DNA of 63,753 nt, the filler included. It is 8 parts of 8 records of this genome, joined end to end, with 100 filler letters (N's around TTAATTAATTAA, not from the genome) between each part and the next. Parts side by side here need not be neighbours in the genome. Positions count along the whole stretch, not along the records: positions 1 to 6,268 come from SRR7504441_739; positions 6,369 to 9,666 come from SRR7504441_742; positions 9,767 to 21,374 come from SRR7504441_743; positions 21,475 to 29,228 come from SRR7504441_758; positions 29,329 to 33,027 come from SRR7504441_759; 3 more parts are not named here. The stretch is one strand, 5' to 3'. Shown piece by piece: positions 3,480 through 32,059 of the stretch. Numbering within the stretch: the stretch's first letter is position 1; each line of letters starts with the position of its first letter. The translations under genes were made by a program, and so were the position numbers. The notes under the pieces were generated by a model. That model was not told where the DNA came from and ran no database searches. It saw nothing but the letters and a program-made list of their open reading frames with translations.

Positions 3480-5231
3480 TCAAGTACGGATTGCAGCAAA
3501 CTTCTCGGCGAGGTCTTGGATACTTTCGGCCATTTTGTCAAGTCGAGCATTCAGTTGCAGTTCCATCTCGTCAAGCCGAACAGAGTGTGGGTCAGCATCC
3601 TTTGCTGCACGTTGTGAAATCATCTGAGTCTCCTCACATGTGCCGATAGGCAGCCACCTGAAGCAAATGTCAGTCCGGCACCCGAATAACCCTGAAGAAC
3701 TGGATGAAATGACCTTCTGCCCTTATTAATTGTTATTCTACCCTTATTAATCAAGTGTACCGGAAACGATCTTCTGCCACTTCTCCCGCCACATAGGTGA
3801 CCATCCCGCTTCGAGTTGAGTATGTAGCGGTAGAATCAACATGTATCAAGTAATAGTATGCCAATGGGTTGTGGTCTCTAGTAATATGATCGTTGAATGC
3901 TCCCGGTTGGATTTGGTCAAGGTCAAACCTATCAGCTGAGCAAACCAGGCAGTACTGAGCCAGATCAGCCATCCGGCTGTCCCCCTTTCTGCGCATGGCG
4001 TTGAACGCGTCAACAATTTGACCCTGAATAACTGCACACAAAAGCAGTAATCAGGCGCTACGAAAGGAAATGCATTGCGAGTTTGAAACGCGTACAATGT
4101 TAGCACGGGGAGAAACTTACTGCCACGAAGAATGAAAGCCCAAAACACAAAGAAGGCGGTCAACATCCACCAGTGTAGCTGCTCCCGAGAGTCATCTTCA
4201 ATCTTGTCTGCATCGAATCGAACACCTTGCAACGAGAGCAAGTCGCCACGGATGCCGTTGTTGAATGTCTGGAATGTGCACTGGTATGCCGTTTATGTGC
4301 CAAATATTTGACAAGTACGAATGCTAGCATGGCCACCCTGGAGGGCGCAGATGTCTCTTCGTGTTGGAGATGTAGATCAACTTGGCCAGCGGCGGCACTG
4401 TAGTCTGTCGCAACTTTGCTGTAGTTCTGTTCAACTTCCAAGGGATTTGGGACGGTTTCTAGACTGTCGTCTGTTGTCGAATCGGTAGAAAAAGAACTCG
4501 GCTGCAATAACAAATATTCCAAAGCTGCTGTGCTCAACATCGAACCAACTTTAAACGGAATCGACTGCTTATTGACAGTATCGACAGAGGATAGTTGTGT
4601 GTGGAGCATTTGCGTTCTGAGAGCCAAACGGAAATGAGTCTGCTGGCAAGTACAGATCGTCCCGCAGCTTGTCGTTCATTTTAAATACATTAAAAAGATC
4701 CTTGAAGGCGCTGCGATGACGTTTAGGGACAGTGCCACTTTGATAAATCCTGAGCAACCCCATTTGTACACGATTGACGATGGAGCGATAGGTCTCATCC
4801 GACGTATCGGCATCAATGCGCTTGTAGATCCCAACCATTGCCGGCATCACTCCCTCATACACGTATGCTGCCATGTGATAATCCACGCTTCCAAGTGAGC
4901 TATCTGGTGTTGTAAGTGCCTGGGCAAACGAGAGCAGCATTGCAGCACCTATGGCTCTCCCAGCGACCTATCGTACTGCAGGTGTTGAACGCGAACGACT
5001 GCTTGGGGTAGATCTGAAAAATGGAACTCTTGACGTCGGTGGGCAAGAAGATCCCCTCATGCAGCTGCTCGCATGCCAGTGTGAACTCCAGGTTGCTGCC
5101 AAGCCCCGATCAGGTCAGAGCAGCCGGCTCCAGCACCCGCGGCCGAAGAGGAAGCCGCTCGAGTCGCTCGATATGACCACTTGGTCGCCATACCGCAGCG
5201 GCTCACGGGCCTGCACCCGGCCGCTCGGCAT
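3480..5231 (-). pseudogene. ITPR: Internally deleted IP3 receptor-like Ca2+ channel gene (remnant 1)
   Basis: ATG at 5231 begins an IP3R-like N-terminus (EPLRYGDQVVISSDSSGFLFGRG…SSIFQIYPKQSF). It is followed by central fragments, the pre-membrane motif PSRVAMLAFVLVKYLAHK, a pore helix (AYQCTFQTFNNGIRG), S6 (GIIQGQIVDAF), the C2H2 zinc site (CLVC…HITRDHNPLAY), WLP and a C-terminal coiled coil ending at TGA 3480. The total is about 1.75 kb, with at least three frameshifting junctions. Confidence 0.8.
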
Positions 5232-5515
5232 CGGGGCAGCTCGCCCGCCTGCAGCGGGCCTCCTTGCAGCGCGCAGCGGGTTGCCTGATGAAGCAAAAAC
5301 TTGGGAATCCTCGAGACCGTTTTCGTTCTACCGGTAGACTAGTGGACTGACAGGCCCACACAAGTACTTGTACGGCGATGCAACTTGAGTGACCGACTAG
5401 CGCAGCAGGTGAGACAATGCGCTCTGGTGAGTGCGGGCGTACCTATTGCTGACTCTGGTACTATGATCGAGCATAATTATTATTCAATCGTCTTAAATTA
5501 AAGCCGAAAGTGACC

Positions 5516-6268
5516 TCAACAATGGCTCAACACCTCGGAGCATAGACCTTCGATCTTGCACGCAATCTTCAGTCCAGATTTCTCCGCTCTAGTTTCACCA
5601 ATGTTAATAATCGCGATCGGGATACCCGCCTCATCCGCTGCCTTGGCCAGCCTGAAAGATGAGAGCACCTGGAGCGAGGTGCCAACAACCAGCAGCAGCT
5701 CAGCGCCCAGCACGGCAGCCTTGGCAGCCTCGGTCCTGTCTTTGGGCACATTGTCGCCAAAGAATACCACATCCGGCTTCCAGATCCCAGCCCCGCAGCT
5801 GTGGCACGATGGTACCACCACAGACCCGAAATCGGCGCCTTCGATATTGGCATCTCCGTCGGCCCGAAGCCGATCCTCGGTGGCGTGTTTCCAGTTCTCA
5901 GCGAGCCAGTCGCTGTTGAGCCCGCTCAGCTGCCGCTGGACCGAGGCTCGCGGCACCCGCGTGCCGCAGCTCATGCACACGCACACGTCATTCCTGCCGT
6001 GCAGGTCGGTCACCATGCGTGAGCCGGCCTGCTGGTGCAACCCGTCTACGTTCTGTGTGACCACAGCACCGAGCCGCCCCTCCCGCTCCATCGCCGCCAG
6101 GGCCATGTGCCCCTCGTTGGGCGCCGATCGGGCGAAATTCTCCCAGCCCACCATCGCCCGTGCCCAGTACCGCTGCCGTGCGAGCGGCTTGCGAAGGAAG
6201 TCCTGATGCATCACCGGCTTGTGCCCCTTGGAGTAGCTCCCCCCCGGAGACCTGTAGTCGGGAAGCCC
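5516..6268 (-). CDS. SIRT4: NAD-dependent sirtuin, class II (SIRT4-like); 5' end cut by linker
   Basis: Motifs GLPDYRSP, RQRYWAR, TQNVDGLHQQAGS, LHG…CMSC…CHSC, KPDVVFFGDNVP, VGTSLQVLSSFR, NIGETRA. Confidence 0.92.
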   Translation of the reverse strand, partial: GLPDYRSPGGSYSKGHKPVMHQDFLRKPLARQRYWARAMVGWENFARSAPNEGHMALAAMEREGRLGAVVTQNVDGLHQQAGSRMVTDLHGRNDVCVCMSCGTRVPRASVQRQLSGLNSDWLAENWKHATEDRLRADGDANIEGADFGSVVVPSCHSCGAGIWKPDVVFFGDNVPKDRTEAAKAAVLGAELLLVVGTSLQVLSSFRLAKAADEAGIPIAIINIGETRAEKSGLKIACKIEGLCSEVLSHC

Positions 6269-6368
6269 NNNNNNNNNNNNNNNNNNNNNNNNNNNNNNNN
6301 NNNNNNNNNNNNTTAATTAATTAANNNNNNNNNNNNNNNNNNNNNNNNNNNNNNNNNNNNNNNNNNNN
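6269..6368. other. Artificial contig linker
   Basis: 44 N + TTAATTAATTAA (stops in all six frames) + 44 N. Confidence 0.98.
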
Positions 6369-9300
6369 GCCGGGCTGGTGCTCTGCCGGCTGGTCGCTTG
6401 GATGTCGGACGGGTGTCACGGGGCGGACCACCTACTTGCTGCGGTTGCGAGCAGCCCCATCGCTGTCCGGCTCATCACCGACCTCGCCGAGGACGAGACA
6501 GCCGCTGGCACGATGGCCATCGCCTCCGCGGTCCGGCTGTGCAGCCTGGGTGCGCCAAATCTGGGTCGGGCGTGAGGTTGGACAGGTCCGGGATTTGCCC
6601 GAACGGTGGCAGTAGCTCGCTGCGGGGGTTCACTGCTCGCTGACTCGCCAGACGCCACGCGGTGCCTCCTGCTGCCTGGTGGACCCTCATGAGTCTGGCA
6701 GCTGTCGGCTGCAAGCCAGGCTACTAGAGCCGCTGTGCGCCGCTGGGGCGGTTGAAAGTCCAACCGCAGTTACCGCCGCCGCCAAACTGGCCATGCTCCC
6801 AGGGGCTGAGGCAGCGGCACTTGGTGCGGTAGCACAGCTCGCCCGTGGCTCGTCGCTCTCCGGGGGTGGGGCGGCTTTGGCAGCCGACACAGTGCTGAGC
6901 ACATACTTGTCGGCTCACGCGCCGCGGGGTGCGGTGGCGGAAGCGCTGCAGGGGCTCACCAACCGACGTTGCATCGCACAGCTCAGTGAGAAGCGGGAGA
7001 TGCTGGCCAGACTAACAGAGCTCGCAATGCAGCTGCTGGAGAGGCCAGCACTGCAAGGTTTGGGCGCCATGGACCAGTTGGCACTCTCTGCAGCCATCTC
7101 GGCCCTGGCAGTGCTCCTCTTTCGGTCGATGGCTGGCGCATCCGGGCGGGCTGCAGCTGATCTTATCGAGCTACCGCGAGCAGTGGCGGCCGTGACAGGG
7201 GCTGTGTCCGGAGCGGTTGAGCCTGCGGCTGTGATCGGGGCGGCGCGTTGTTTGGAGATCATTGCTGGGACTGGTCGTGTGGGTGGGGAGGCAGTCGCCT
7301 GCTCGGCTGCTCTCCCTGTGATAGTCGAGGCGTTGGGCTCCAGGTTGGCTGGCTGGGAACTGGAGTGGCAAGCAGCGAGGACACTCCGGGCGGTAGCTGC
7401 GAGTGGTGGGCGTTGGGCAGTGCTGCAGGCGGGCGGGTTAGAGCCGCTGCTTGCATGTATGGATCTGCCACTGCCTGAGGCTGAACATGCTGTGGTGGCG
7501 GCTGCAGAAGCGCTTGCAGTGCTCGTGCAGTCGGCAGAGGTCAAAACAGCGGTATGCGAGCTCCAGTCAGGTCGAATAGTGGAAACGGCGGTCGAAATGG
7601 TACGCCAACAAAGCAATCAGCTGCAATTGGGTGGGCTTCGACTACTTCGGCAGCTGTTATGGAGCCGACCAGCTGTCTCAAGCATTGCAACCTCACTGGG
7701 CGAATTCCAAGTGCCCGCCAAGCTGTTCAGACTCGCAATTAGCGATAGGACTGCTGTTGCTGGTGAGGCTGCGCTTGGCCAGGCCGCTGCCCTTGAGGTG
7801 CGTGACTTTGATCGGTTCAGCTGAGCTCTGCCAGGCTTACAGGCGGCATCCCGCACTACTGAGTTGGGAGTGTTCGCTAGAAGTTTCTCAGCTGAGGCTG
7901 ATGCTCCGCAGGGTGCGATGAGCTGTTTTACTGAGCCGTTGACCCGTCTATGGCAGGCCGGAAGCGACGGTGACCAGGGCTCAGTTGCAGCGCGTGCCGT
8001 CCTGCTTGCAGAAATTGTCCGGGCTGAGCCCGCTGTGGCGCTGTTGCTCGCTGCAGGGGGCTCGCCAGGCAGCTTATACAACCAACTGTCAGCAATGGCC
8101 GAGGGTTTACCCAGCCAGGTCCGGGGCACTGTGGGCGCTGTCGTGGCACGAGTGGCCTCAGGATCTGCGCCTGCCCGTCTCGAGCTTGCAATGCACCCAG
8201 CAGTAACCCCCTTGCTGTGTGCCCAGCCGCTCACTGGCCGCGCAGGCGTTGCAGCTGTTAGCGGAACTCGGCCGTTCGTCCTCAGAATCAGACAAACTCG
8301 AGGCAGTCTCTACTCTGCTGCTTGTGCTACAAGACAATGTGTGCCGATCTGAACTCGCCAACGCTCCGGAGGGAATCAAGATGCTGCTGGATCTGAGCTT
8401 GGCCGATGACGATTCGGTCCAGACTCTTGTAGCACTCGGGCTGCGGCGGCTTTGTGAGGACCCTGGTTGTGCAGTCAGGGCTGGCCAGTGCGGTGCTGTT
8501 GCTGGGCTGCTCAGATTGGCAGAATCTGACAACACTGAGTGCTCCAGAAACGCGGCAGCAGCGTTAGCAGGGCTTAGTGTGCACGCTTCAGACTACACGC
8601 AGCAAGTGATGATTGGGGCGGCAAAGCTGGCAAGAGGAGCTATGGCGGAGCGGCTTGTGCTGGCAGGTGGACTGCTTGAAGCGCTTGGTGCGGAGCCAGG
8701 GCATTGTGAGCTACTGGTTCGGGCTGGTATACTCGAGCCGTTGATTGTCATGGCAGAAAGCGGACTCGTGGCCGCCGAGCGGTATTTTCATCACAGTTAG
8801 CATCGTTTAGCTTATTTGTAGGTCGGCATTGCTGGTGATGGACAAGTTGATGCACTGTTATGCAGTACAAGAAGCAGTGAGTAAGCGCTCCGTACTGGTG
8901 GAGCTAGCTGCGCGCACAGTGCTGGGTGGAGCACGCGCGGGGCTGCGGGAAGCTGCGTGTCGGGTGTTGGCAACGCTGGCGGCAAATATGCAGTGCAGTG
9001 GAATGGAATCGGCAACAGCACGCTGGAAAATAGACTCAGTCGGAGATCGGCTTCGGTGAGCGCCACGTGATTAGTAGGCTAAACTGGCCGCAGGACGCTG
9101 TTTGGGGCACCCAGCGAATCTGGGTCAAAGGCTTTAGGCAGTGAATTAGGCAGTGAATTCAAACAATTGGCGATGGATCTATGGCATCGAGATGCTACTA
9201 CTGCTCTGCTCACAGAGCTAGCTACGAGGATGGGCGAACTAGCGGGAACTGTGGAGCTGGTGGAGGTAGACCAGGTGGCCGGAATGCATCTGCTTGTCGG

Positions 9301-9558: not shown

Positions 9559-9666
9559 CACCACCACCCAATTATTAATTAACGCGCATTTGCTTATTGG
9601 TACTCGTATTTTTGTAACGTCCTGGCATCTTAAAATCAAGCTTGGCATTACGCTGTTACGACGTAA

Positions 9667-9766
9667 NNNNNNNNNNNNNNNNNNNNNNNNNNNNNNNNNN
9701 NNNNNNNNNNTTAATTAATTAANNNNNNNNNNNNNNNNNNNNNNNNNNNNNNNNNNNNNNNNNNNN
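9667..9766. other. Artificial contig linker
   Basis: 44 N + TTAATTAATTAA + 44 N. Confidence 0.98.
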
Positions 9767-10632
9767 GGAGGACAAGCCGAGCAAGAAGCCGGAGGAGACC
9801 CCGAGCAAGCGGCCGGCGCCCGAGATGCTGAGCAAGGCGTGGTGCCTGGCGCAGTTTGACGAGGCCGATCCTGAGAAGAGCGGGTTCATACCGAGGTGAG
9901 CAGCCGGCTGCGGCCGCTCAGACCGACTGCAGGACGGAGCTGGAGCGCACGTTCGCCTTGTACCAGACAGACCAACTCTGTGCGGCTTGGGGCGGCCGGG
10001 CTGCTCACGGGCCGGGCAGCCGGGGCGGACAAGGAGAAGCTGGAGCGTCTGACCAGCGGGATGAAGCAGTTTGAAGGGTTCATACTGGATAGAGACCAGT
10101 TTGAGGAGCTCTGCGACCAGTGCCTGAGGGTCACGCCGTCCAAGCCGGCCGGATCGCCCAAGCCCACGCGCTCGGGTGTGTTTGACATGGACGACGCAAT
10201 CGCCAAGGTCTCTGGAAGCTCGGACTCCAAGCCGGCCACCCCCAGGGCAAAGCCCGCAGCTGGTGGGTCAGCTGATCCGCGGCTGGCCGGTGAGCGTGCT
10301 GCAGCCAACCGAGGAGCGCAGGCCTCATCAGGAGTCAAGCGAGGAGCTCAGGCTGTGTTCAGCCAGCTGCAGCAGAAAGGCGACTCGTTTGTGTACAAGG
10401 TAGCTGCAAGCTGCGGGCGCGCCTGAGCTTGGCTAGCACGAGCTGCTCCGGAATCTGGCGAGGTACAAGTCGGACGAGCTGAGCAAGCAATCAGGCGCTG
10501 GGCTGGCTGGCAGTAGGCGAGCTGGTGGCAGATATAGATGCGATCACCGGGCTGATCGCCGACCTGCGCGGGGCTTCAAAGGACCCGGTAGTCGAGCTCA
10601 AAGAGTTTGAGAAGCTGCTCGCCCGGCTCTGA
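9767..10632 (+). CDS. EF-hand-containing protein, 5' partial, multi-exon
   Basis: FDEADPEKSGFIPRTELE EF-hand-like loop, further degenerate loops (ILDRDQFEEL, VVELKEFEKLL) and short introns. The last intron boundaries are ambiguous. Confidence 0.55.
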
Positions 10633-10941
10633 CAGTCTGCATGATTGCATGGAACGACGTATTGGTCTTGCATGAGCGCTCGACTAGCGCTCGACATCTA
10701 GCTCGGGACGAAATTTATACGAGTTCGTAGCTCTACTCTAGCTCTACTTCTTAAATGCGCACTAGTTAAATGCACACTAAGTTTAGATGCACATAAGTGA
10801 TAAAAGACACAAGTCATTGAGTCATAACAATCAGCTGACAGTCTGCGCAGAAGTCCCCTCAGGCTGTCCTGATCACCAAGACGGAAACCTGAGGTCCTCG
10901 AGTTGAGAGAGGGGAGCCACCACTCCTGGCACCGGACAGGG

Positions 10942-13900
10942 ATGGAGACGGGGCACGACCCGCCGGGCGACCCGCCGGGGGATCCGCCGGGGATCTCGTT
11001 GCCCGAGGCCGACAGCCAGGAGGAGGATCCGGCCCAGGAGGACCGGGGCAGCACCCCTCCTGAAGACCCGGCGGACGAGCTGGACGACGACGACGGCGAG
11101 GCCGAGTTGCTGGCCGCAATGGCGCTATCGCTGGAGGCAAATCGGCGGGTGGCCGGCCGCAGCGCTGACGGGCCGGTCTACAGGTGGATCTGGACGGCAA
11201 CGCCTACCAATACGATGAGCAGACCGGCAAGGTGGAGTACCAACATGAGGCCGAGCCCGAGGCCCCGCCGGTCCCGGACCCAGAGGCGATGATCGCGGCG
11301 ATCCTGCGCGACAGTTGCACGCTCCCGCCCCAGCCGGCGCTCGAGACCGGCAACTTCTCGTGCCTCAAGGGCCACCCGCTCGTCCGGGAGGTGGGGGCCC
11401 CGCCCTGCCGGCCGCTGAGCCGGGCGAGCAGCACCGGGAGCGCAACTGGTGCGATCGGTGCAACGTGACGAGCACCAGCTTCCGGTGTGCGCACGGGTGC
11501 GACTACGATATCTGCCAGGTGGCGGCCCCCGCTGGTCCCTCGCTGACTGGGTGGTGAAGGCGTGCTGGGACAAGGAGCTGAGCATAGGCAAGCTCGGTCT
11601 GTTCGTCTCGCCGTTTCTGATGGACCAGTGCCTGCGGGGCGACGTGCCCGTCCACTGGGACCATCGGGTAGAGAGCGTTCAGGCGTTGATCCAAAACCAG
11701 GCGAGCGTCCCCCAGCCCTGCTTCTTAACCCAGCTGCAGGGGGTGCTGGCTGCGCACCTGAACGCCTCGACCCTGAATGTGCTCAAGCTGTGCCGTGGCG
11801 GGATCATCGATAGCCTGACGCTCGGGCTGAACAAGGACTCACAGATCGATGAAGCCCCGCTCAGTGGTGGCTGCACGCTCAGCCGGGCGTTGATCGGCCG
11901 GGCAGGGATCATGGAGCTCTGTCACATGGTGATCTGCTCACTGTCCGAGTGGCACCCGGGTGAGATCATCTCGATGTTCAAAGTGGTGGCGCCCAACGGG
12001 GTCGCGTACAGGCATACGCCACAGTTTGAGGATAGAAAGGAAATCCGGAAGGCGCCGATGCACGGCGTGTGGGTCTCAGGCAGGATGGTCAAAGGGGCGG
12101 ACGGGATATTCTTTGTGCGAGTGGAGCAGGGCTATTTGCCGATGAGCTCAACAGACGGCACTCAGCTGCTCGTGCCGGCCCCTCTGGCTTACCAAGTGTC
12201 TGGAGCCGGCTCCGAGGAGGCCAATGGGCAGTACTGGCTGATCCACCACGCGAGCTGGGCCAGCTACGAGGGGGTGCACCTGCCTGAGTTCACCACCAAG
12301 GCCCCGCTGGTCGGGGGCGCCGGCTTCCGGAGCCAGCAGCTCGAAGTCACGGGTGAGATGGACGAGGACACTGTCAAAGCGCTCAGAGGACTGCTCAACG
12401 CAAACCTCGGCCGTGTGCACTCCAAGCTGCTCACTCTGGACTCGGGCAGCCTGGACGAGTCGGTCATAAAAGTGCTGCAGGCCTTCTTGGTTTTGAGAGC
12501 CAAGAGCTGCTGGGTGGCCTCCGAAGGCGAGTCTGCTGTGCTGAAGCTTGAAGGGCAAGACACTCCTGTGGTGGTCAAGTCCAAAGCGAATGAGGACCAG
12601 GAGGTGACTGTGCAGGTCGATGGGTCGGAGGTGCTCATCCCGGTGGCTGCTCAGAGCCTCAAGCCGGTTGATCCAATCAAAGCGACAGGCGAGATGGACG
12701 GCCCAACCATCAGCCAGCTGCAGCTGTTTCTTAACAAACACATTGAGCTCTGGGGACCCAAGGCTGGTCTGAGTAACCTCAGCGTGGACGGTCAACTCGG
12801 ACCGGTCACAGTGTCGGCGCTCCAAGGTCTGATCAACTCTTGCTGGCACCCCACATCGCCCTGCCCCCGGTACTGCAAGAGCGAAGCCAACACAACAATG
12901 CTGCTGGATCGGCGTGGGGGCAAAGAGTGGTGGATCACCAAAACTTGCTCGCCCAGCACTCCGGAAGCAGCCGACCTCCAGAGCCCGGCAGTAGCTTATT
13001 ACTTTGCCAAGGGAATCGAAGATCAGCCCGACTCTCTCAGGTGGGAGTCCCAGGCAGATGGGCTGGCGCGGGCCATCGGCGCGATGAAGCTCCAGATGAG
13101 CCAGGAGCAAGACCAGGCCGCCATCAAGGAGCTCGAGCAGAGGATTGAGAATCTGGAGGATGCTGTGGCGTCTGGGATCACGGCGGCTGCGAGTGAGCCT
13201 GGAATCCCGATTGGTGACTCGCCCGCTCCAACGGTCCAACCAGCCGACTTCAACCCGATCGCTGAGGCCACTGAAGAGGTTCACATTGAGCGACAGGCAC
13301 AATCGTGGGCGCAACGGCTGCACAAGACAGTGATGGGCATCGGACAGAAAACAGAGAAAAGGATCGGCGAGGTGCTTGGAATGGGCGACTGTGTGCTGCT
13401 GGAGGACCTCCTGGCCCGATTCTACGAGCAGCCGCCTCTACTTGAGGTGGTGGTGGCCTTGACGGCCAAGCCTGCTGAAATCCGGTCCCAGCTGAGCTCG
13501 AGGCTTGCACGCTACAAGGCTGCCGTGAGACAGCTGATGCTGCGGTATCAGATGCAGTGCGCTGCAGAGCTGCTCCCGGGGCTTGTGGATTGCTTCTCAC
13601 TGGCCCAGCCGCCGCGGATCGAGAAGATGGTGCTGCGCGAGATCCATCACCTGCTGCTGCACTCGCCGCTCGAGGCCTTTGAGATGGTTCAACCCGAGAC
13701 GCGCGCCGCGCTCTTCTCTCTCACCCATCGGCTGATCCGGCGCAAGTCGCTGGCCGATGTGGTTATAGGGCTCAAGCTGGTCCGGGTGCTGCTCAGGTGG
13801 GCCGACGAGACTGCGTACGAGCTGCACAGGTTTGGGACACTCCAGGCAGTCGAGGCGCTCTATAGAGTGGAGCAGCAAGTGCAGATTGGGATGCGTCGGG

Positions 13901-16900
13901 TCATGTCTGGCACCACAAAACCGTCTGTGGTGCGAGAGCTCGCGGTCGTGGTGGCTCAGGACCTGGCCGCCAATTTCACCAAGATGAAGACAGATCTTCT
14001 ACCTCAGCCTCTAGCCCAGCTGGCACCAAGGATTCAGAGTGGCGATGGCTCCGCACTGGCAGATCTTGCAAAAATGCTTGAGGAGAAGGGGAGCATCACA
14101 GCGTTTGAGCTCTCAGAGTGTGGCATTCCTGCTGCACTGTCAGCCTACTTGAATGCCGAGCTAGTTTCCGTCAAGGAGCACAAACGGCGATGCAAGGAGC
14201 TGCGGATCAAGCTGAGGCGCGTGTTGCCGCTGCTGGTTATTTTGTTGCACGACGCGCTCTTCTTGCTGGAAGAACTCCCCGTGTACCGGCACCAGGCTGG
14301 AGGGGCGATTCATGGCGTCAAAAGCTTGTTGCATCCGTGCAAAGTAAGTCTGAGGAACATCAACCCAGAGATGGCCAGACTCTCATCCCCTACCAACAGT
14401 CCCGGAGCTGGATGTGTCCAGAGGCACTCACCAACTGCTGGCAAAGACAGCGAGCTGATGCCGCCGCCAGCTGCTCCAGCGGAGGCCGCGGAGCCAGAAG
14501 ATGAGGCACCAAGCCTGGTGCTCACTGTGCAGGGCGCAGGATCAGAGGAGGTCAACGGACGGTACGAAAGGTGCGGCACAAGCGACGGAGTGCCGATGTT
14601 CTGCCAGCCAGGAACCAACCTGTACATCCTGCGATGGCACAACGCCGGGACAGACTCCCGACCAGAGCATCAAGGCAAGGAGTGGTTTATTGCTGACCTC
14701 GGCCAGGAAGGTCAAGCGGGAAGTGCACACAACAACGTGGACTACTATGTTGCTGACAGCTGTGCTGCATTACCTCCAAGGAGCGGATGGTCCAATGCGC
14801 CTCGGTCCACGTTCAAATCCCCTCAAGGCCTCATGCCTCCGCCTGTCATCAAGGAAGGCTCTGCCCCAACAGGCGAGCAGAGGGGCCAGAGCTCGATGGT
14901 GTACGTGGAGCCACTCACCGAGTACTCACTGATCAAGTCGCATGTGCTACGAACAGCCGCCATCCAGGACCCCAAGTGGCAGCTCTTCTGCCGTGAGCTA
15001 GTCGGTGCGAGGGTTCAAGAGGACACAGGCCGTGTGGCTAAGGTTCTCGCTGTCCGGATGGTTGGTACAGGTCAGCTGGTGCACAAGCTTGAATACGAGG
15101 ACGACAACACATCGATATGGGTGGTGCTTGCAGTCCGATCGTTCTCCATCATACAACAAAGCCCTGCCGATGCACTAGCTGATTTTGAGACCGAGACGGC
15201 TCTTGAAGAGTCGTTGAGTATCAGAAACTGTTTAGTGAGTGTCAACTTCAGCAACCCCGAGCCGGAGGAGCAAGCTCCTGAAGAGGAAGAGGCAGAGGCC
15301 CCAGAAGCTACCAGCGAGAAAGAGGAACCTGACGATGGGGTGCCAGAGGCTTGGGCTGAACCGCTCGAGTTCTTGCTTGGGATGGGCTACGCAGCTCAGC
15401 TCACGGAAGTGTACAATATGACTGAGAAAGAGATTTGCCTAGCATGTCTGCACAAGGCTCAGGGCAATGGAATGGTTGCTTTCGAACTCCTTGAAAGCCA
15501 GAACATTCCAGCGCTGCCAGAGCCACCAAAAAGCTGCCCACCGCCACCTTCAAATGTGCTTTGGGAAGCCCAGGACGACGAAAATAATTGGAGGCCGTAC
15601 AGCCCGGAGGAGGCAGCTACCATCGAGGAAGCCAAGAACAATGGCCAGTCTGAGGTAGCTGATATCAGCTTCATGGGCGAAGTCGGAGTGCTCGACCTTG
15701 TCGAGATGGTTCAGAGAAGACCACAGGTGGCGAACTGCTAGTTTAACCCATCCATATTTATGGTGACTGACTATTGTATTGCAGGACGATGGCCAGAACT
15801 CAGTGCGGCGGCGTGACTTGCAAGCCGAAGCCGAGGCCACAGTGGCGCAGGGTATCGAAGCATCGCTGTCTCAGCTGCACAATGACAATGTGGCACACAA
15901 CAATCCTCTCTTGTTAGAACTGAGGCAGATGCGCGAAGGTGTCGACCTGGCTCCATGTACTGTTCAAGTAATCGCAAACTTTATGAGAGCTGTAGCACTG
16001 ACAGCACTGCAAGACATGCCACATGGACTCGCTGCAAGTGCCTATCAAGAAGCAGCTCTGATCTTCCTTTTGGGAGAGGTGGTGGAGAATGGCAGTCATC
16101 CTGCCTTGAGCTTCTTGATGTCTGTATTGAAGACTGTCACAAAAGCAGCCACATCTGATGGTGGTCATGGAGCTGATGTGCTCCGCACCAACCTTGAGAG
16201 CTTTCCGGTCGCGCTCTGCATGCAAACAGCCAAATCTGCTAATTGCAAGACGAGCAAGTCTCTGACTCCAGAGGAGCAAATTGTCGTGTCATGCATGTGC
16301 TGGTACACTGGAGCAATTCTGATGTACCATAGTTGTAAATCAGCAAGTGCTTACTCTTCAAAGGAAGTGCAATCTGTGCACGTTGACCATGCCATTGCAT
16401 CGACTCCTGAGCTGGCGTTTCTGCAGCGTACACTCTGCGACCGCTTATCCCAGGCACCAGCGCTTCCTGGTGCGCTTCAGAGCTTTCTCAGACTCATTAT
16501 GGCCCCGCTGCGAGCGGCCATCACTCAGGCCGATCCGGGCGAAGCACCTTTCGGGCATCGCGCAGGTGAGGAGTACACCTTTCAATCACGAGGTTTCATT
16601 GGGGGTGAGATCGAAATGCTTCTGGAACTACGGAAGCTTGCAACAGAGAGCAGCGTGCCGATCGCACGTGGCCAAACAGAGCACGAGGCTAGCACATTAG
16701 TATCGCGAGTTGCAGGTCTTTGTGATCTTGATGTGAGCACTGTAGACGACTGTGGTACACTCTATCTAAAGGCTCCACTGCCAAGAAAACGCACTGGATA
16801 CGAGCCTGGTTCGCGGGTGCAGGCCAAAGCTAGTTTCAACGACTCCTGGACGCCTGGGACTATTTTGGCTCGAAAAGACAGCGTACATTCCATCGTGTAT

Positions 16901-19900
16901 GACAACGGCGTCTTTGAGGAACACTTGCCGGAGGCTCGGATCCGTACAGCGGCAACTCACGAGAGCAATGCAAAGGTGCGCCATGCTGCCTTGATGCCTT
17001 GGCATCAGATGGGTGTGCTGTGTAGGGCCGGCCTATGGGGGGGCTGACGCTCAAGAGGGAGCTGACTGTCTTTGAGACTCACGACCAGGCACATCATGTG
17101 GAGCACACTAAGATCCTTGAAAGGAATGTAACACCAGCCGAGACAGCAAATTCTACTCCTGTTGCCTCAAAGCTCAACCTAAAGAGAATGCGAGTGCCAA
17201 CATTGGAGGTTGCATTTGCGCTTAAGCAGCCTGTTGCCGGCGGTGGTCACACAACCTGGTTGACTAAGCGGGCGATGCACGTGTGGCGCAAGCCAGATAG
17301 CCGGCATCCGCCCATTGGACAAGTTTTCAAACCTGGCTGGGTGCTCACAGTGGTGGAGCAGCGGCCGTGTGCAGCTTCAGAGCGGATGCCCCTTGATGCA
17401 ATGTGGCTCAAAGTGGCTGTCCCACAAGGTGGCCTTTGCATTCTAAACAGCACATTTACTGTAGCCTTTGCTCTAGGTGCTGCTGCCTCGTGGGTGCTAT
17501 CTCAAGATCGACAATATACATACGCAGTGCAGTGCGAAAGCGCTTCATCTGAGGCCAACATGCAAATCCCAGACCCACAGCTTGCTGCGCTGCCTCCAAA
17601 CATGGTGCTGCTAGCGCTGCTGACTCGCATTGACCGCTTGTTTGTGCAGACATTCTTCCAGTCGATTCACAACATGCTCAATTCCACAGATTTGTGGCAA
17701 GCGCAGCAGTTGTATGAGCTTCAGTACTGTGTCAGCGTGAAGGACCCACAGAAAGGCAACCTCACCCGCACTGCTAGCTGGAACGCTGGAGCACTGCTTA
17801 AAGGCCGCCTCCCGCCGTGGAACATAGACTCTGTGGAGCAGAAAGTAGCCGAGCTCGGGCTGACCCGAACAGCATTTGTCAAGCAGCTCCAAGAGCTAGC
17901 CAAGCGCGAGTGGCTCGATCGGATGGAGATGCTCGGTAAGCCGGAGGTTGTGGCTCAGCGCAATGACTGGGGGCGGCTCTTCATGGTATACCGCATGCTC
18001 TGTGGGACCGGTTTAACCCCCCGCAAGATGCGGAGCCCGTCAAAGCGGCGGGGCAAGCGCTCTTTTGATGAGGAACTGGAGTCAATTGGGCTGTCGAATC
18101 CCAATGCACGAGCAGTCGTGACTGCACTTGCAGAGTTATATAAGAGTGTTGGCTCTATGTGCCCCCCTTCAGCTTGGGTCAACCAACAACTCAGTCAAAA
18201 GCTCGCAGTACAGCTGGATGACGCCTTGGCAGTCGCAAGCTCGACTATCCCACCCTGGTGCCCACACCATAAGGCTGGTTTTGCCTGAGAGCTGGCTTAA
18301 TGTGCAGGTGTCACAAGGTATCTAAGCTTTGCACCTTTTTGCTCAACTTCGAGCACCGTCGGTCTCTATTTGAGTGCACCGCCTTTGGGACTTCGCACGC
18401 TGTATACTGGCTACAGGAGCGCGCAATTGACAAGGAAGCGGGGGAGACTCGCAAGCAATTTAAGGAGGCGGACCGCAGGAATCAGGAGTTCAATCGTAAG
18501 CTCGAGGCCGGAAAACTCACCGAAGAGGAGGCCTCGATCTGGCAGAATAAAATCTTGCCCGACCGTGAATACTTTTATGAGAATCTCAAGGCTCACCAGC
18601 TGGGCCAGTTGAAAGCAGTGATTCGCAAAATCCCTCATCTCAAGTCTGTCTCCTGTCTGCGGTATGCAGGAGAGCTGATAAAGCAGCATCGAGAAGTCAG
18701 CGCACAGCTTGAGGTGCAGTTTGAAGAGGACGGAGGAGGCGGGTTTGGTGACGGTGTTACTCAGGGATTCTACGCTCGAGTGGCCAAGCTATTGCAGCAT
18801 CACGAATACAACTTGATGTTTGACCTCTGGTCTGATGTTGGCGCGGAAGCTGCACAGAGTAGCGCGAGCTTGCTCAAAACTGAATCGGATCAGCTCATTC
18901 AGCGAAAGCAGGTGGATCCACTGGACATCGATGAGCCGCTGGAGGCCTTGAGTCAGGAAGTGGAATCGATGCTGATTCAAGGGGAGGGGAACAGTGCAAT
19001 GCAAGAGACTATTGTAGAGAGGGTACGCCGGTACAGGCTAGCAAAGAAGGCTGTGGAGGTGGTCGTGGGTAAGGTCGAGGAGGACATGGCCAAGCACTTG
19101 GATAAAGACCAGCAGGCGTCGAGTGAGAAGGGCTACAGTGAATGGCGGGTAGTGTTCAGTGATGGTATTAACGTGAGGACAAATCCAAGCTTGAGTGATG
19201 AGCGCGTCGCGATGGCACCACAGGGAACAATTGTTCATGTGACAGAGACTCGATCTGAGGATGGTGAATGGGTGCTCCTAGCTGATTGGCAAGGACAGAA
19301 GGACTGCTGGATGCGCTACAGGCGAGGCAATGAGCACTGGATTGTGCCAACCCGTGCCTACTTTGCAGAGGTCAATCATAATACGGAATTAATGGATAAA
19401 CAAAAGAGGCTCCGGAGGCTAATCGCCAAGGCCGAGTGCGTTCACGTGCCAGATTCTGGGTTGTTCCCTCGTGCAATTCTGCAGGACAACGGAACACGTC
19501 TGCAGAACATGTGTGCACAATTCAAATTCATTGGGCGCTTGCTAGCAACAGCACTGCGCGATAATTTTGTGGTCGGGCTGCCACTATCTGTGGAGATTTT
19601 CGCAGCCTTAAGAGGAGATCGGATCGGGACCGGGTCTTTGCCAAAGCCACATGAGACAGGGGGGATAGTGTCCGTCTGCCTGGCAATAGGGGAGGAGCTT
19701 GAAGCTGCAGGTGATCAGGCCTCTACTCCAGAGCAGAAAAGCCGACTTGTCGACCAGATACTAAACGGGCCTTGCAAAACTTATGTCGATTCGGAGGGAG
19801 TTCATCACATCCGCTTTGCAGGCGAGGATTTCATGGGTGAGGACATGACGCTACAGCAGTACTATGCTGCTGCGCCTCTTGCATTTGTGGATCCGTGCGA

Positions 19901-20585
19901 CACTTCCGATCAGCCACATGAGCTGTGTGCTGGAGGCGCTAAGATGGAGGTAGAGCTCACCGCCGACAGCCTGCTGGAATATGCGCAGCTGGTGACCAGC
20001 TGGTGGTTCGAGCAAGGAGTCAAGCGGCAGATCCAAGCCTTCTGTGAGGGAATTGATGAGGTGTTCCCTGTCAGCTCGCTGCAGGCGTTCTCCGCGGGAG
20101 AGTTGCAGAGGATGTTCTGTGGGGACCTTCAAATCAAGTGGGCAGCAGGGATGACCACCACCACCACTAGTCCAGAAAGTGTGAGAAAGCACGAGCTCCA
20201 AGCGCTGACTCGACACCTGAATGTGATGCGGCCGTACACGAAGGACAGCCCTGTCTTCAAGATGCTGCTTGCCGCGCTGGTTGAGATGGACAACGAGCAG
20301 CGTGGCGACTTCTTAGAATTCACAACTGCAAAGAGGTGCTCGGCACATTTGGTTTCACAGACTAACACTGTTTGTGTGTGCAGGTGTTTGCCGGTGAATG
20401 GGCTTGCAGCTGCTGGGATTACAATTGCTACTGAGAAAAAACCTGGCGATGTGCTGCCATTTGGTCAAACATGTACTAAGACCCTGCATATACCTCCGTA
20501 TGGCAGCCAGCAAGAGCTGCAAGCTGCACTCAAAGCCTCGATGCTGAATGGGTCTGAGGATGTCGGCTTTGTCGAGAGGGGGTAG
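10942..20585 (+). CDS. Large TRIP12/UFD4/UPL3-like HECT E3 ubiquitin ligase with UIM, ZZ-like finger, SH3b-like, PG-binding-like, UBA, WWE, histone-fold-like and Tudor modules
   Basis: TRIP12/UFD4-type motifs ITAFELSECGIPAALSAYL, WVNQQLSQKLAVQLDDAL…IPPWCHKVSKLCTFLLNFEHRRSLFECTAFG, LEVQFEEDGGGGFGDGVTQGFY, and C-terminal LPFGQTCTKTLHIPPY (catalytic Cys). About eight short introns reconcile the ORFs. Confidence 0.9.
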
Positions 20586-20786
20586 AACTTACTTGTACGT
20601 AGTCTATTATAGAATGATGCGATTAAAATTACGTGGACTTATAATTTATAGGCGTAATTTCGAATTCTCTTAGAATTCTCTAACACAACTGCAGACTCAA
20701 ACAGTATACATGCACTTCGAAAATCCAAACTCTCGGCGTCGATGAGGTTGGTTGTATGCCAATGACGTATCTTGAAATGACGCAAA

Positions 20787-21374
20787 TCAATCATCCCTCA
20801 GCGGATGGCCGTTGACGTGGAGCGGCTCACCCACGGCGTCCACGGGCCACGTTGCTTCACTTGGTGCAGTGTCTGGTATGGGGTTGCTGTGATCCGAGCT
20901 GATCCGACTTAGCTCAGCCTTACTTGGACTCGAATCATCAACAATTGTAGCGACGGCGGTCGTATTGGCCGGCTTGTCCAAGGAGGCTGATTCAGAGACA
21001 TCCTTCAAGGAATTTGTATCGGCATGTGGAGCTGGAAGAGCCTTGGCCTTGGCTGCATTTTTCCAATGAGTGCCGGCATACGCAACAGAGGGAATTGCTG
21101 CATGTTGCAGGTCAGTGTGAGACTCACACTCCCAAGCACTTTGCTGCCTGCTCAGGAGATCATTCACCTGGTTATAGAGCACCATCTTATCCGACAATAC
21201 GAGATTTTCTGGGTGCTCAGAATTGACCATGTGTGTGAAGAAGGCCGCAGGCTGTAGCATGCCGATGTCAAGAGCAGTTTCACCATCAAAGTTCGTCATG
21301 AGTGGACTAGCGCCCTCCCTCAACAACAATAATGTCGCAGAAAGTCGCCCCGCAAATGCTGCCCAGTGCAGCGG
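20787..21374 (-). CDS. Ankyrin-repeat protein, 3' part
   Basis: PLHWAAFAGRLSATLLLLREGASPLMTNFDGETALDIG ankyrin consensus at the contig edge. Confidence 0.75.
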   Translation of the reverse strand, partial: PLHWAAFAGRLSATLLLLREGASPLMTNFDGETALDIGMLQPAAFFTHMVNSEHPENLVLSDKMVLYNQVNDLLSRQQSAWECESHTDLQHAAIPSVAYAGTHWKNAAKAKALPAPHADTNSLKDVSESASLDKPANTTAVATIVDDSSPSKAELSRISSDHSNPIPDTAPSEATWPVDAVGEPLHVNGHPLRDD

Positions 21375-25249: not shown

Positions 25250-25318
25250 TTTACGATCAGGCCTCAGTAGTACCTCCTCTCAGGCTAAGACTAACTAGCA
25301 TGACACTTTTATGACGTC

Positions 25319-26430: not shown

Positions 26431-26506
26431 ATTGCGTCCAGGTTACGGTACAGTACAAGTGCACAGCTAACGGCAAGCGGCAAGCGAGACTTCACCTTGA
26501 CCCTCG

Positions 26507-28057
26507 ATGTCTGCAGCGCTGGTGTGGTTCCGTTCCGACCTGCGGCTGCACGACCACCCGGCGTTGACCGCGGCCGCGGCCGGGCACCGCGTGCTCGCGC
26601 TGTTTGTCTGGGACGGCAGCCAGGGCGGAGCGGCCCAGTGCTGGCTAAGGGCCGGGCTGGAGAGTCTTCGGCAGAGTCTTGAGGCGCACCAAGTCAAGCT
26701 GCTCGTGCTCCCCGGCCCGGCCGACCAGACGGTGCCCAGGCTGGCCCGGGCCTGTGCGGCGGACACCGTGTTCGCCACCCGGCGCTGGGAGCCGCGCGGG
26801 GAGGCCGAGGATCATCGGGTGGCCGCGGCGCTCCAGGCTGACGGAAAGCGGCTCTCGCTGCACCGCGGGGCTCTGCTGTACGACCCGGACCAGGTGGCCC
26901 AGCTGCACGGGCGGTGGGCCGAGTTCTTCAGCCCGGGGCACGACTGCTGGGGCAAGCTCTTCCCGTTCTGGCGGGCGTGCCTCGCGCTTGGGCCGCCCGA
27001 TAGGTGTCTACCTGCCCCGGGCCGGATCGAACCGCTGTGCGGGCCGGTGGATGGACTGGACGATGTGGTTGATACAGGGGGCGAGCACGAGCCGTGGCGG
27101 ATCAAGCTCAGCGAGGCGATAGGCCAAGTGAGCGAGCGGCGGGCGCGCGAAGAGCTGGCTGAGTTTGTGGCCGCCCAGCTGCGTGGTTACGAGCGCAAGA
27201 GGCACATGGCCGACCTGCTGGACGCGCAGAACGCCAACAGTGGGCTCTCGGCCTATCTCCGTTGGGGCCAGCTCTCTGCCCGCGAGCTGTACTGGGCAGT
27301 TGAGGATGCCAAGCCTGACATGCCAAAAAAGCTCTGGAACACGTTCGCGCGACGAGTCTTCTGGCGAGATCACGCCTACTACCAGCTCTGGCTATTCCGG
27401 AGCATGCCAGACCAGCCGATCCGGCCGGCCTATCGCTCGCTCGAATGGCGGTCGGACTCCGAGCTGCTCGAGGCTTGGCAGAAGGGCCGGACGGGGTTTC
27501 CACTTGTGGATGCAGCCATGCGGGAGCTCTGGGCGCGCGGCCGGATGCAGCAGAACATGCGGATGGTGGCGGCTGCCTTTTTGGTCGAGTATCTCCGTAT
27601 CTCTTGGGTCGAGGGCCGCAAGTGGTTTGACGACACGCTTGTCGATGCCGATGAGGCGATCAATGCAATGATGTGGCAGTCGGCTGGCCGGACTGGAGCC
27701 GACCAATGGACCTTCAGCAAGAGCCCGTCCGCCGGTGAGGCGGTGGACCACAGCGGGCGGTACGTGCACCGGTGGGTGCCAGAGTTGAGCGGTCTGCCGG
27801 CGCCACTGTGCCATCGGCCGTGGGAAGCCGACTCAGCCGCACTCGAGGCGGCTGGGGTGGAGCTGGGGGGCAACTACCCGCACAGATGCGTGTGCGAGCA
27901 GACGGACGCGTTTCACGAGGCTGTGCTCAGGGTGCGGCAAGGGATAGCTCACGATGCTGGCCAGAACAGCGAGCGCGGGTATGATATGGTGCAAGTGCCC
28001 GGGCTAGGGCTGGTCGAATTAGGCACCGAGGAGCGGTACCGAATCACTGCCGTGTAG
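26507..28057 (+). CDS. Cryptochrome/DNA photolyase family protein (plant-like/marine CRY clade suspected), intronless
   Basis: VWFRSDLRLHDHPAL, SGLSAYLRWGQLSAR, WQKGRTGFPLVDAAMREL, NMRMVAAAFL, LVDADEAINAMMWQ, GRYVHRWVPEL, GVELGGNYP. Confidence 0.93.
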   Translation: MSAALVWFRSDLRLHDHPALTAAAAGHRVLALFVWDGSQGGAAQCWLRAGLESLRQSLEAHQVKLLVLPGPADQTVPRLARACAADTVFATRRWEPRGEAEDHRVAAALQADGKRLSLHRGALLYDPDQVAQLHGRWAEFFSPGHDCWGKLFPFWRACLALGPPDRCLPAPGRIEPLCGPVDGLDDVVDTGGEHEPWRIKLSEAIGQVSERRAREELAEFVAAQLRGYERKRHMADLLDAQNANSGLSAYLRWGQLSARELYWAVEDAKPDMPKKLWNTFARRVFWRDHAYYQLWLFRSMPDQPIRPAYRSLEWRSDSELLEAWQKGRTGFPLVDAAMRELWARGRMQQNMRMVAAAFLVEYLRISWVEGRKWFDDTLVDADEAINAMMWQSAGRTGADQWTFSKSPSAGEAVDHSGRYVHRWVPELSGLPAPLCHRPWEADSAALEAAGVELGGNYPHRCVCEQTDAFHEAVLRVRQGIAHDAGQNSERGYDMVQVPGLGLVELGTEERYRITAV

Positions 28058-28231
28058 CTTTAGAAGACGACTCGCAAGTGCATGATTTGAGTAGTACGTA
28101 TAAAACATGTTTGGGGGTACTATACCTTTTTCGGAGATCACCGGCTCTGATCACTATAAAGCCATTGATATAATATACTCGTTGTACTTGTACTTCATTG
28201 ATCATGAGTACTTCATTCTTCTACGGAACAC

Positions 28232-29039: not shown

Positions 29040-29228
29040 CTCCAGCAGCAGGTCGATCAAGGCAGTGGAGATCTTGGAGGGGCGCGTAGGCTATGCCGAG
29101 GCGCGACTCCTCTCCTCCCCTCTGGCCAAGCCCGCCCCTTCACCACAGGCTGCTGCCGTTGCGCTTGGCGGTTGTCTGTCTTGTCTTGCAGCAGTGGATT
29201 TTTTTTTTGAAAGACAAGGCGTTTTATT

Positions 29229-29328
29229 NNNNNNNNNNNNNNNNNNNNNNNNNNNNNNNNNNNNNNNNNNNNTTAATTAATTAANNNNNNNNNNNNNNNN
29301 NNNNNNNNNNNNNNNNNNNNNNNNNNNN
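29229..29328. other. Artificial contig linker
   Basis: 44 N + TTAATTAATTAA + 44 N. Confidence 0.98.
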
Positions 29329-30725
29329 GGGCGAGTTGGGGGCTGTCCAGGGATCTAGCGTTTAGGACAGCCGGTGCAACTACATATAAGCCGTCCAGTG
29401 CCGCTGACTCCTTGGACTTTTGCTCGCGGAAGTGCTCTACCAGCTCCTTGAGGTCGCTATTTCCGGCCACCTGAATCCGCCACTCAGTCCGAACCCCACT
29501 GCTAACCGCCGGGACTAAAGCTCGTGCAACGCCGGACAGCGCCTAGGTGAACATCTAGGGCGAGCGTGCCCTCACCTCTTCGAGGCTCTGCTCGTGCGCT
29601 TTGAGCATATCCGAGCTGCCCTCCACCCCCTGCATGCACTCCCACAGCGACTCCTCGTATTCCTCCGCGTACACCGCCCGCGAGACCACCCGCTGCAGCC
29701 CCGAGCCCCGGAGCAGCCTCACCGTCTGCTCTGGCCCCAGCTGCCCCCTGATCAGCCAACCCCAGCTGCAGCTGCCTGGAGCTGGCTCGCTTTGAGCAGC
29801 GTGTCGGCCTGCTTATTGGGCTGTTTGCCGTCCAGCCACACCGTGCAGCAGAACCGGGGGCTACGCGCCGGCAGCACCCTGTGCAGGCACCGTTCACTCA
29901 TGAACAGCACCACTCGGCCCATCAGCGGCTCGATCACCACCCGCTCGCCCAGAAACGGCTGGATAACCAGCTCGCCCCCGTCCCCTGCCCACCGCTCAGC
30001 CTGGCCTGCCCGGGACACGGCACCGGCCGCCCAATTGCTGTTGAGGTAGACCAGGCAGGTTACCGCCCGCCTGTTTGGCGGCCCGGGGTTATCATAGTGC
30101 AGCGGGAAGCACCCGCCCTCCCCGGAGTTGTACTGCAGCTGCTCCCCGCTCATAGCCCGCCCGCCCGGCCCGGCGCCTTGACGGTCTGCCCGCTCGGGCC
30201 GTGCTCAAGCTCCAGCCCGGGGACGGCCGCCTCCAGCGCCTCTGACAGCGCCGTCGAACTGACCCTTCGGTCGGGCCGGCCGGCAGGCAGGGCACCGCCA
30301 CAGCGCTTCGAACTCGGGGAGCCGGCGGCGGAGCTCTTGGTCGTGCAGGTCGACCTCGAACACGCCGGGCTTGGAGAACTGGCGGGGGCCGTCGGCGGTG
30401 GTGAACTGAGTCTTGTTGGGCAGCATGAGCCGCATCCGGGTGAGCCAGTCCAGCTCGGCATGGAGCGCCTCGGGCCAGCCCACCGGCAGCGCCCCGTCCA
30501 GGCTCACCCAGCTGCCCGGCCCGGTCTGGCCCTCACCCCGGCGGCGGGGCACCCGCGCTGGCTGAGCCGCTCGCAGGCGGCGGGGGAGAGCGCCCGGGCC
30601 CAGCAACCCAGGTCCCGGGAGAAGCCGGCCGGGTACGGGCCCGGGAAGCCGGCCGGGGCGCACTCGTCCATCAGCGCGAAGAACTCGGCCGAGTCCAGCG
30701 GCTCGCCCTCGCTGCTCGAAGACAT
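29329..30725 (-). CDS. 2-oxoglutarate/Fe(II) oxygenase (EGLN/2OG-FeII_Oxy_3-like), multi-exon, 3' end at contig edge
   Basis: KLQYNSGEGGCFPLHYDN (HxD), VTCLVYLNSNW, GGELVI, LFMSERCLHRVLP…RFCCTVW (distal His and Arg). Confidence 0.85.
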
Positions 30726-30863
30726 GTAAAAGTAACGGACTTGGCGCCCAAAAGTCGAAAAAGTGGGAAGTCCTGATCGGGAACGGCTTCGCACCTGATA
30801 TGGGCATGGGTGCACAGTGACTGCCGGCGCCCAGTGCGACTTGTGTGTGAGGCGAGCTAGCCG

Positions 30864-32059
30864 ATGGACCCGAGCATGATGTGCGAGCCGTTGCGGATCG
30901 GCGACCGGATCACTCTCAACTTCCAAGACGTCATGGAGCAGCACAGCGGCCAGCGAAGTGACATCCTTGTGGAAAAGGCAGAAGAGCAGGCAGTTGTTCT
31001 ACTCGAGGGGTATACCACGCTGGAAGAGTACGAAAGCTTGACAAGTTCGCTCCCAACAGACAGATTCCTTGTGCATAAGCACAATATTGCTCCAGAAATT
31101 GTGGAGATCAAGTACCTTGCTCTTCAATTCGTGGAACAGTACTACATACCACGTGGTCAAACGGCCCTTTGTTTACGTGCTTGATCATGTCTACATTGAT
31201 ACTTATCCTGTGATGAGTGACGAAGTTGCCTTAGGTATGGGATGACCCTGAGGTGACTGTACGCTGTGAACAGCTTGGCAAGCGTTACGCACTCCTGATC
31301 TATGCACTGGATGATCAAAAGTGCCTTCAGCACCCATTGGAGCAGCTACTCAAGGGAGCGTTAATGGAGTATGCCTTCTTTTCACAAGGGATACTCCAGC
31401 TTGAAATTGGTGTTACGCAAAGGAGGCAAGCTACAACCACGAAATTCGTCGTTTTGGTTCCTGCTGCTATTCTTTTCTTTAAAGGATCCCCTATTTGTGT
31501 GGTTTGCAGCATACGTGGTCGTCAATCAAATGGCCTACAACAATCCGTTCTTCTATACTCTTTTATTCCTTGACATCATGACCTGGTGCAAGCCTATCAA
31601 AGAGGCTCTGATTGCAGTGAGATCCAGGCTTTATAGACTACTGATGCTTTTGATCCTGTACATATTCGTGCTGCTAATCTTTGCGACATATGCTTACTAC
31701 TACTTCCGTGACGACATCCGGGCTGAATCTGGAGCTGTTGTCTGTGATGTACTCTGGAATTGCTTTTTTGTGATTTTCCACAAATCGCTACTGAAACAAG
31801 GTACGGACTACGTTGGAGGAGACTACGAGGAAGGCGTTGATGACAACCAGGAGCGGCTGATTCTTGGCACTTTCTTCTACGTTTTCTTCGGGCTGTTGTT
31901 CCTGTGCCTCTTTCTGGGTGAAATCATTACAGCCTACCAACTACAGATGCGCAGAGGATCGAACGACAACTTCAAGAAATGGAGGACAAAGTGACAAATC
32001 GCTTGGATAGAGTGGTCGTTGTAGTGGGCCGAGCCACGCGCGGAACAAGCGATGATTAG
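30864..32059 (+). pseudogene. ITPR: Internally deleted IP3 receptor-like Ca2+ channel gene (remnant 2)
   Basis: In order: N-terminal EPLRIGDRITLNF; EIKYLALQFVEQYY; VKRPFVYVLDHVYIDT; YAFFSQGILQLEI; the membrane block (FFYTLLFLDI…CDVLWNCFFVIFHKSL…LFLGEIITAY); and a C-terminal coiled coil (RIERQLQEMEDKVTNRLD) ending at TAG 32059. Total about 1.2 kb, pieces in different frames. Confidence 0.8.

Follow-up and report, generated by a model that had tools for sequence, protein, structure and literature searches.

Ordered pieces of two IP3R/RyR-superfamily genes in contigs of an uncultured marine protist: a probable assembly artefact

Introduction

Ca2+-release channels of the IP3R/RyR superfamily are encoded by long genes; full-length relatives of the loci described here span 2200-3900 aa, and close relatives carry the RIH and RIH_assoc domains. 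Two loci with channel sequence of this type lie in a 63,753-nt stretch of DNA (the window, filler included) composed of eight eukaryotic contigs. Unlike intact members of the superfamily, gene 1 (5231-3480, minus strand) and gene 2 (30864-32059, plus strand) are represented in the window by only about 1.2-1.75 kb each. The original prediction, made from the sequence alone, took them for genes from which DNA had been lost in a family-specific manner, faster than point mutations could accumulate. The analysis presented here favours a different origin, to which we give a probability of about 0.72: both skeletons would be an assembly or post-assembly artefact in which covered islands of sequence were butted together.

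Several described systems produce genes in fragments. In ciliate-type scrambled genes and internal eliminated sequences, gene segments are found in one DNA form without their neighbours. The two loci resemble these in that segments occur without their neighbours in one DNA form; they differ in that the window contains neither pointers nor spacer DNA, the long form is transcribed, stop usage looks standard and the GC content is 0.53-0.61. With decayed or unitary pseudogenes they share frames broken at the joins and the absence of most of the gene, whereas the retained parts show no substitution decay, internal stops or broken splice sites. The likeness to draft-assembly errors lies in ordered, same-strand, blunt-joined pieces that are near-identical to a longer true sequence, with the joins of gene 2 unsupported elsewhere. 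Incomplete or wrong genes in short-read assemblies are reportedly the theme of one paper (PMC5632298). A limited literature search found no paper on read-sized islands joined without Ns.

Channel genes in ordered pieces

Judged by their sequence, both loci are ordered pieces of putative Ca2+-release-channel genes of the IP3R/RyR superfamily, with transmembrane, pore, S6 and Cys/His regions that align to solved RyR and ITPR chains. The open reading frame (ORF) at 31365-31994 (+) in gene 2 scores 27.2 bits against Pfam Ion_trans (cut-off 25) and aligns to RyR2 4709-4872 with an expectation value (E) of 6.5e-6. In gene 1, the ORF at 3751-4050 (-) aligns to RyR2 4855-4930, comprising the end of S6 and the Cys/His C-terminal domain (E 1.1e-5), and the same Cys/His stretch also aligns to ITPR2/3 chains. 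Since the best structure matches are to RyR, the label IP3R, as against RyR or another superfamily member, is not established for either locus, and gating by IP3 is only putative. The description of the loci as IP3R-like thus holds for the type of channel and not for IP3R proper.

Among 10 ORF pieces from both loci, Pfam recognised Ion_trans on the long piece of gene 2 as the only domain. No ligand-binding or MIR domain was detected in the pieces by Pfam, most of the N-terminal region being absent from the window, and RIH and RIH_assoc were likewise not detected in them. The N-terminal ORFs of both loci had no Pfam match at E<=1. With a profile built in this analysis from 43 full-length relatives, the channel pieces were the only ones placed with significance; in a search of 282 ORFs both N-termini matched its positions 20-47 weakly (gene 2 at 20-42, E 0.25; gene 1 at 23-47, E 0.61), so the predicted N-terminal motif is weakly supported. 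Stop codons have the same reading as in the relatives, consistent with the standard code.

The close relatives are partial metagenome proteins. P0001 (709 aa) and P0002 (536 aa) are 70% and 60% identical to gene 2, respectively, and P0152 (393 aa) matches its N-terminal ORF. P0152 carries RIH (PF01365, E 2.7e-5). A related metagenome contig of 2563 bp, L001, encodes a 774-aa ORF that is open at its 5' end and carries RIH_assoc (PF08454, E 1.8e-9) together with Ion_trans; it was the sole locus recovered by the metagenome scan with alignment A1 and yielded no full-length reference. The scan with P0001 as query returned no locus, and viral-contig scans found nothing. The family of P0001 comprises 3346 proteins at E<=1e-3, many of them 2200-3900 aa long, and 43 of the 151 collected proteins (query included) measure 2200-3000 aa.

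Gene 2 consists of six ordered open-frame pieces in frames 0, 0, 1, 2, 0 and 2, so that four of its five joins are out of frame (Table 1). This agrees with the predicted pattern of pieces without internal stops that are nevertheless joined out of frame. The pieces match P0152 and P0001 in the correct order at 59-87% identity: P0152 97-163 corresponds to gene 2 residues 32-98 (70% identity over 67 residues), and tblastn places P0001 68-125 at 31241-31408, 307-487 at 31395-31937 and 670-708 at 31940-32056 (87% identity). Each of the last two joins skips about 180 residues relative to P0001; among what is skipped are the first transmembrane helices and the Cys/His domain, the latter present in P0001, P0002 and L001. 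The window lacks about 80% or more of the coding length. A short TTAG repeat of about five units (32209-32232) lies right at the poly(A) site.

Gene 2 in public marine runs

The gene 2 contig was searched against public sequencing runs, of which 19 were listed; 14 of these, belonging to 12 studies, contained part of its sampled words, with a best share of 0.22. Logan contigs of four runs from four studies were aligned to 29329-33027 at a likeness of at least 88%. X1 is a metatranscriptome (2016) and X4 an oligo-dT RNA library (2025), while X2 (2022) and X3 (2025) are only guessed to be DNA. The alignment comprised 23 records with at least 19 pieces listed, of which 14 fall in 30656-32220; stretches without cover in the four runs, such as 29949-30444, are uninformative.

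An uninterrupted gene 2 exists in other samples at near-identity, polyadenylated and expressed. Over 2306 aligned nt, the 14 listed pieces differ from the window by four substitutions and one indel (99.8% identity). Among these matches none crosses a join, 11 end exactly at one and the remaining three lie inside the pieces. The five joins are at 30951/30954, 31146/31147, 31240/31241, 31393/31394 and 31938/31939, and the public contigs leave the window sequence at each of them. X2 record 8 spans 30656-30951, including 208 nt upstream of the ATG, and continues for about 42 further letters off the window; X2 record 12 (470 nt) holds piece F2b with non-window sequence on both sides; X1 records 2 and 3 stop at 31241 and 31393 with loose ends; the ends of F4 are the stop points of X1 records 4 and 5 and X2 record 13; and X1 record 6 and X4 record 19 begin at 31938. 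Loose ends are also found before 30954 and behind 31146.

These loose ends lead into the missing parts of the gene. At least ten occur at the joins, and seven were translated by hand, corresponding to nine of the ten rows listed (the end before 31938 is found in both X1 and X4). All seven keep the frame of their piece and run into the expected missing residues of P0152 or P0001 (Table 1). At the 3' end, X1 record 6 turns into a stretch of A's after 32220, 16 nt downstream of the AATAAA, and the same end is found in the oligo-dT library X4. As a control, two runs (records 14 and 17) span position 32799 in the flank.

At each join, the overlap between the left-hand and right-hand pieces amounts to just 0-2 nt. 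Compared over 30 nt, the ends of the missing segments bear no resemblance to the window piece ends, and neither GT..AG nor TA was found bounding the missing segments when these were looked for. The short overlaps and dissimilar segment ends argue against microhomology-mediated deletion.

Variation was seen elsewhere on this contig. The flank at 29393-29851 differs from X2 and X3 (records 7 and 15) by about 2.6% (12 differences in 468 nt). Within gene 2, X2 contains a single-nucleotide polymorphism (SNP) bubble of two 61-nt contigs at 31028-31088 that differ at 31058 (A/C), which indicates that the gene is polymorphic in the X2 population. X2 contigs align to 32799-32924 and 32495-32552 with only their later part, after more than 250 letters of foreign sequence; at 32813 the total depth is 19, of which one X2 contig accounts for about 16. 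The probable cause is a GC-rich repeat, or a domain that another locus or organism also has.

Gene 1

Gene 1 lies on a contig separate from that of gene 2 (1-6268 against 29329-33027), as had been predicted. Its introns are normal in appearance, again in line with the prediction: three GT..AG introns of 41, 89 and 103 nt all splice in phase, the latter two (4120-4032 and 3760-3658) within the C-terminal piece, where the last 206 codons are open to the stop once spliced. The C-terminal region gave 151 tblastn matches from collected family members (best E 3e-17). The middle, at about 4930-4300, had no significant homology in Pfam, relative, profile and Atlas searches, and no relatives were found for a 132-aa piece of the gene (Atlas best score 0.87, no family). 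In tblastn with all collected proteins, weak matches outside 3751-4292 sit at positions consistent with the expected order, among them P0125 44-124 for the middle (E 0.007) and P0031 114-211 for the N-terminal piece (E 0.06). The predicted collinearity of internal fragments is therefore borne out for gene 2 against P0152 and P0001, whereas the middle of gene 1 shows no detectable homology.

Table 1. Positions of the pieces of both genes, the loose ends found at the gene 2 joins and other features of the window. A slash within a peptide marks the join.
Feature	Position	Strand	Description
Gene 1 N-terminal piece	4930-5231	-	ATG at 5231; 41-nt GT..AG intron 5136-5096; 87 codons open after splicing
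Gene 1 middle	4300-4929	-	At least 4 short coding-like pieces in changing frames; from codon-usage frame profile
Gene 1 middle pieces, approximate	4925-4610, 4600-4540, 4526-4490, 4472-4380	-	
Gene 1 C-terminal piece	3480-4292	-	Pore helix and filter, S6, Cys/His domain, coiled coil; stop 3482-3480
Gene 2 F1 and 5' flank	30656-30953	+	ATG at 30864, then 29-30 N-terminal codons; GC 0.61
Gene 2 F2	30954-31146	+	193 nt; internal helical region upstream of an RIH domain; P0152 match
Gene 2 F2b	31147-31240	+	94 nt; single open frame
Gene 2 F3	31241-31393	+	153 nt; downstream of RIH_assoc region; tblastn P0001 68-125, E 2e-14
Gene 2 F4	31394-31938	+	545 nt; transmembrane helices, pore, S6; P0001 307-487, 70% identity, E 2e-56
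Gene 2 F5 and 3' end	31939-32220	+	39 C-terminal codons; stop 32057-32059; 3' untranslated region (UTR)
Gene 2 polyadenylation features	AATAAA 32199-32204; poly(A) site near 32220	+	
Loose end	before 30954		..LPVMFPLLDS/RSDI vs P0152 ..PHIFPLLDSRSDI
Loose end	behind 31146		YY/NLRIDHQFTR vs P0152 YYNQRLDFQFTR
Loose end	before 31241		LYEVVDED/DDP vs P0001 LYEQVTDDDP
Loose end	behind 31393		FSQGI/AELEILQED vs P0001 FSQNVSCIEIVQND
Loose end	before 31394		IYDRETKER/ISSLKLVLRK vs P0001 IFDRKKKERVSTLRFILRK
Loose end	behind 31939		AY/HELSNDHHSK vs P0001 AYMELSTDHKDK
Loose end	before 31938		LKNQLDMS/ATTDAQ vs P0001 LKTYLDIKNTTDAQ
ATG11/ATG17-like gene adjoining gene 1	451-2900	+	Weak ubiquitin-like N-terminus
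Giant gene (>18 kb)	41033-59825	-	ORFs up to 1290 aa; sole recognisable domain teneurin-type EGF
Short introns outside gene 1	15733-15785, about 17010-17090, about 18270-18310		GT..AG
Within-gene GC fall, example	9767-21374	+	
Within-gene GC fall, example	33128-40932	-	
Within-gene GC fall, example	26501-28057	+	

Origin of the skeletons

If both skeletons are an artefact, each locus would be a long Ca2+-release-channel gene of an uncultured marine protist that is represented only by read-sized islands. The inner pieces of gene 2, at 94, 153, 193 and 545 nt, have lengths like those of islands under one or few short reads. Candidate routes are gaps of unknown length set to zero, removal of Ns, a consensus that omits positions without coverage, or library molecules that were chimeric; concatenation of covered islands after assembly is the most economical account. 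The intact frames and in-phase splice sites of the retained pieces support such an origin. We infer that gene 1 may have arisen through the same artefact as gene 2. As for the proposed DNA loss, it finds no support at gene 2, where an intact, 99.8%-identical and polyadenylated form is present in public runs. It had been anticipated that reads failing to span the joins would point to assembly; the counterpart seen for gene 2, on contigs of other samples only, is that the matches listed leave the joins unspanned.

Several points weigh against an artefact. The comparison rests on contigs of other samples, the best run holding 0.22 of the contig's sampled words, and contigs lose rare variants, which makes the absence of a deleted form unprovable from them. 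X2 and X3 are DNA by guess. Depth bookkeeping points to a further X2 piece in 31189-31312 that may cross 31240/31241, while the other surplus X2 depth, at 31028-31088, is accounted for by the 61-nt SNP bubble. If the window contig were of the plain de Bruijn type, its joins would exist in some reads and reflect a real variant or a library chimera, not post-processing. Finally, two genes of one family are affected, for which length and recognisability are the sole reasons offered; these may suffice.

Among the alternatives, the one that survives best, unlikely as we consider it, is a real DNA variant: in the source strain, or in a very recent duplicate, the locus would have undergone several large blunt deletions, and the gene would be intact and expressed in other strains. 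The skeleton does sit between the own flanks of gene 2 (upstream in X2 record 8, 3' UTR in X1 record 6), a plain de Bruijn contig has only k-mers seen in reads, and a private variant is compatible with contigs of other samples. At least five blunt, ordered deletions would, however, be needed in each of two paralogues. In the C-terminal domain, the proteins of gene 1 and gene 2 are no more than 26-28% identical, which leaves no DNA similarity able to target both, and a targeted process would be required that has nothing else in its favour. Moreover, the pieces carry only four substitutions in 2306 nt next to flanks that differ by up to 2.6%, and no junction-crossing contig occurs in any of the four runs among the matches listed. 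Eight ORF products running from ATG to stop, three of them across gene 2 joins, were looked up by exact match, and none occurs in a collection of 15 billion proteins, a weak argument that depends on the gene calls made there. In its general form, the view that the skeletons are real DNA beside or instead of intact genes, with segments cut bluntly and in order and without point-mutation decay, strikes us as decidedly improbable; if true, it would mean a targeted somatic or strain-specific removal of DNA that acts on particular genes.

A short-cut in a de Bruijn or overlap graph, taken through sequence common to paralogues, is more doubtful again. The family is certainly large, as the relatives of P0001 attest, yet there is no shared word at any join, the ends of the missing segments are unlike the window piece ends, and contigs of X1 and X2 pass the join sites unbroken, which shows that these are not repeat boundaries in those samples. 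Blunt joins without a shared k-mer thus make this an unlikely form of error. Assembly, one of three causes named in the original prediction, comes closest to the present result, although not in the form of a multigene-family short-cut in which it had been put forward.

An origin as old unitary pseudogenes, which a strong bias towards deletions would have shrunk once selection was lost, can hardly be reconciled with the data: the out-of-frame joins and the loss of most of the coding length would suit them, but the pieces are 99.8% identical to the expressed full-length gene of other samples, contain no stops or frameshifts, and in gene 1 retain three intact, in-phase introns. A decaying relic would be expected to diverge no more slowly than the DNA around it, and the pieces are near-identical where the flanks are up to 2.6% different. 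Near-identity to an expressed gene, together with intact pieces, implies that any loss is neither old nor fixed in the species, and the proposed relaxation of selection with deletion bias is contradicted for gene 2. Programmed DNA elimination or gene scrambling, with the window as one nuclear form and the missing segments held or removed elsewhere, would have both the short form (window) and the long form (X2, if DNA) as DNA, and is just as implausible, given that it is the long form that is expressed (X1 and X4, both RNA), that the five joins lack pointer repeats, TA boundaries or spacer between pieces, that stop usage fits the standard code and that other long genes of the window are untouched.

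Other features of the window

The eight contigs measure 3.3-18.8 kb, have a GC content of 0.53-0.61 and are separated by N44-TTAATTAATTAA-N44 spacers. Their eukaryotic character is apparent from ORFs of up to 1440 aa and short GT..AG introns. Introns in the window are roughly 35-103 nt long, and in several a CTGAC-like box lies a short way before the 3' end. Further genes encode a WWE/SH3/HECT ligase, a photolyase, an ATG17/11-like protein and a giant protein with teneurin-type EGF. The ATG17_like domain match in the gene next to gene 1 covers only profile positions 235-355 of 355. In the Atlas, the photolyase falls in bacterial clusters only, which is uninformative on the taxon. Rfam and tRNA scans of the entire window gave no matches and hence no taxonomic marker. 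Searching the contigs of genes 1 and 2 for repeats revealed none, terminal or flanking, that would hint at a mobile element.

The long genes of contigs 3 and 7 stay in one frame over kilobases, in keeping with the prediction that long genes elsewhere in the window are spared. Frame maps of other short contigs are patchy and leave room for further hidden collapsed genes. Within genes, GC drops strongly from 5' to 3', from about 0.70-0.75 near the starts to about 0.50 downstream. The pieces of gene 2 also show a gradient, with 0.61 in the first and 0.45-0.50 in the later ones, as is expected if they derive from far-apart parts of a long gene.

Significance

Apparent gene decay in draft or metagenome-derived eukaryotic assemblies needs a check against reads before it is interpreted, and the assembly studied here may conceal similar collapses in genes that are not recognisable by motif. 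It would be easy to mistake both loci for a sign that an uncultured marine protist has lost its Ca2+-signalling genes or turned them into pseudogenes. The public runs show, for gene 2, that this putative Ca2+-release-channel gene is intact and transcribed in the sea.

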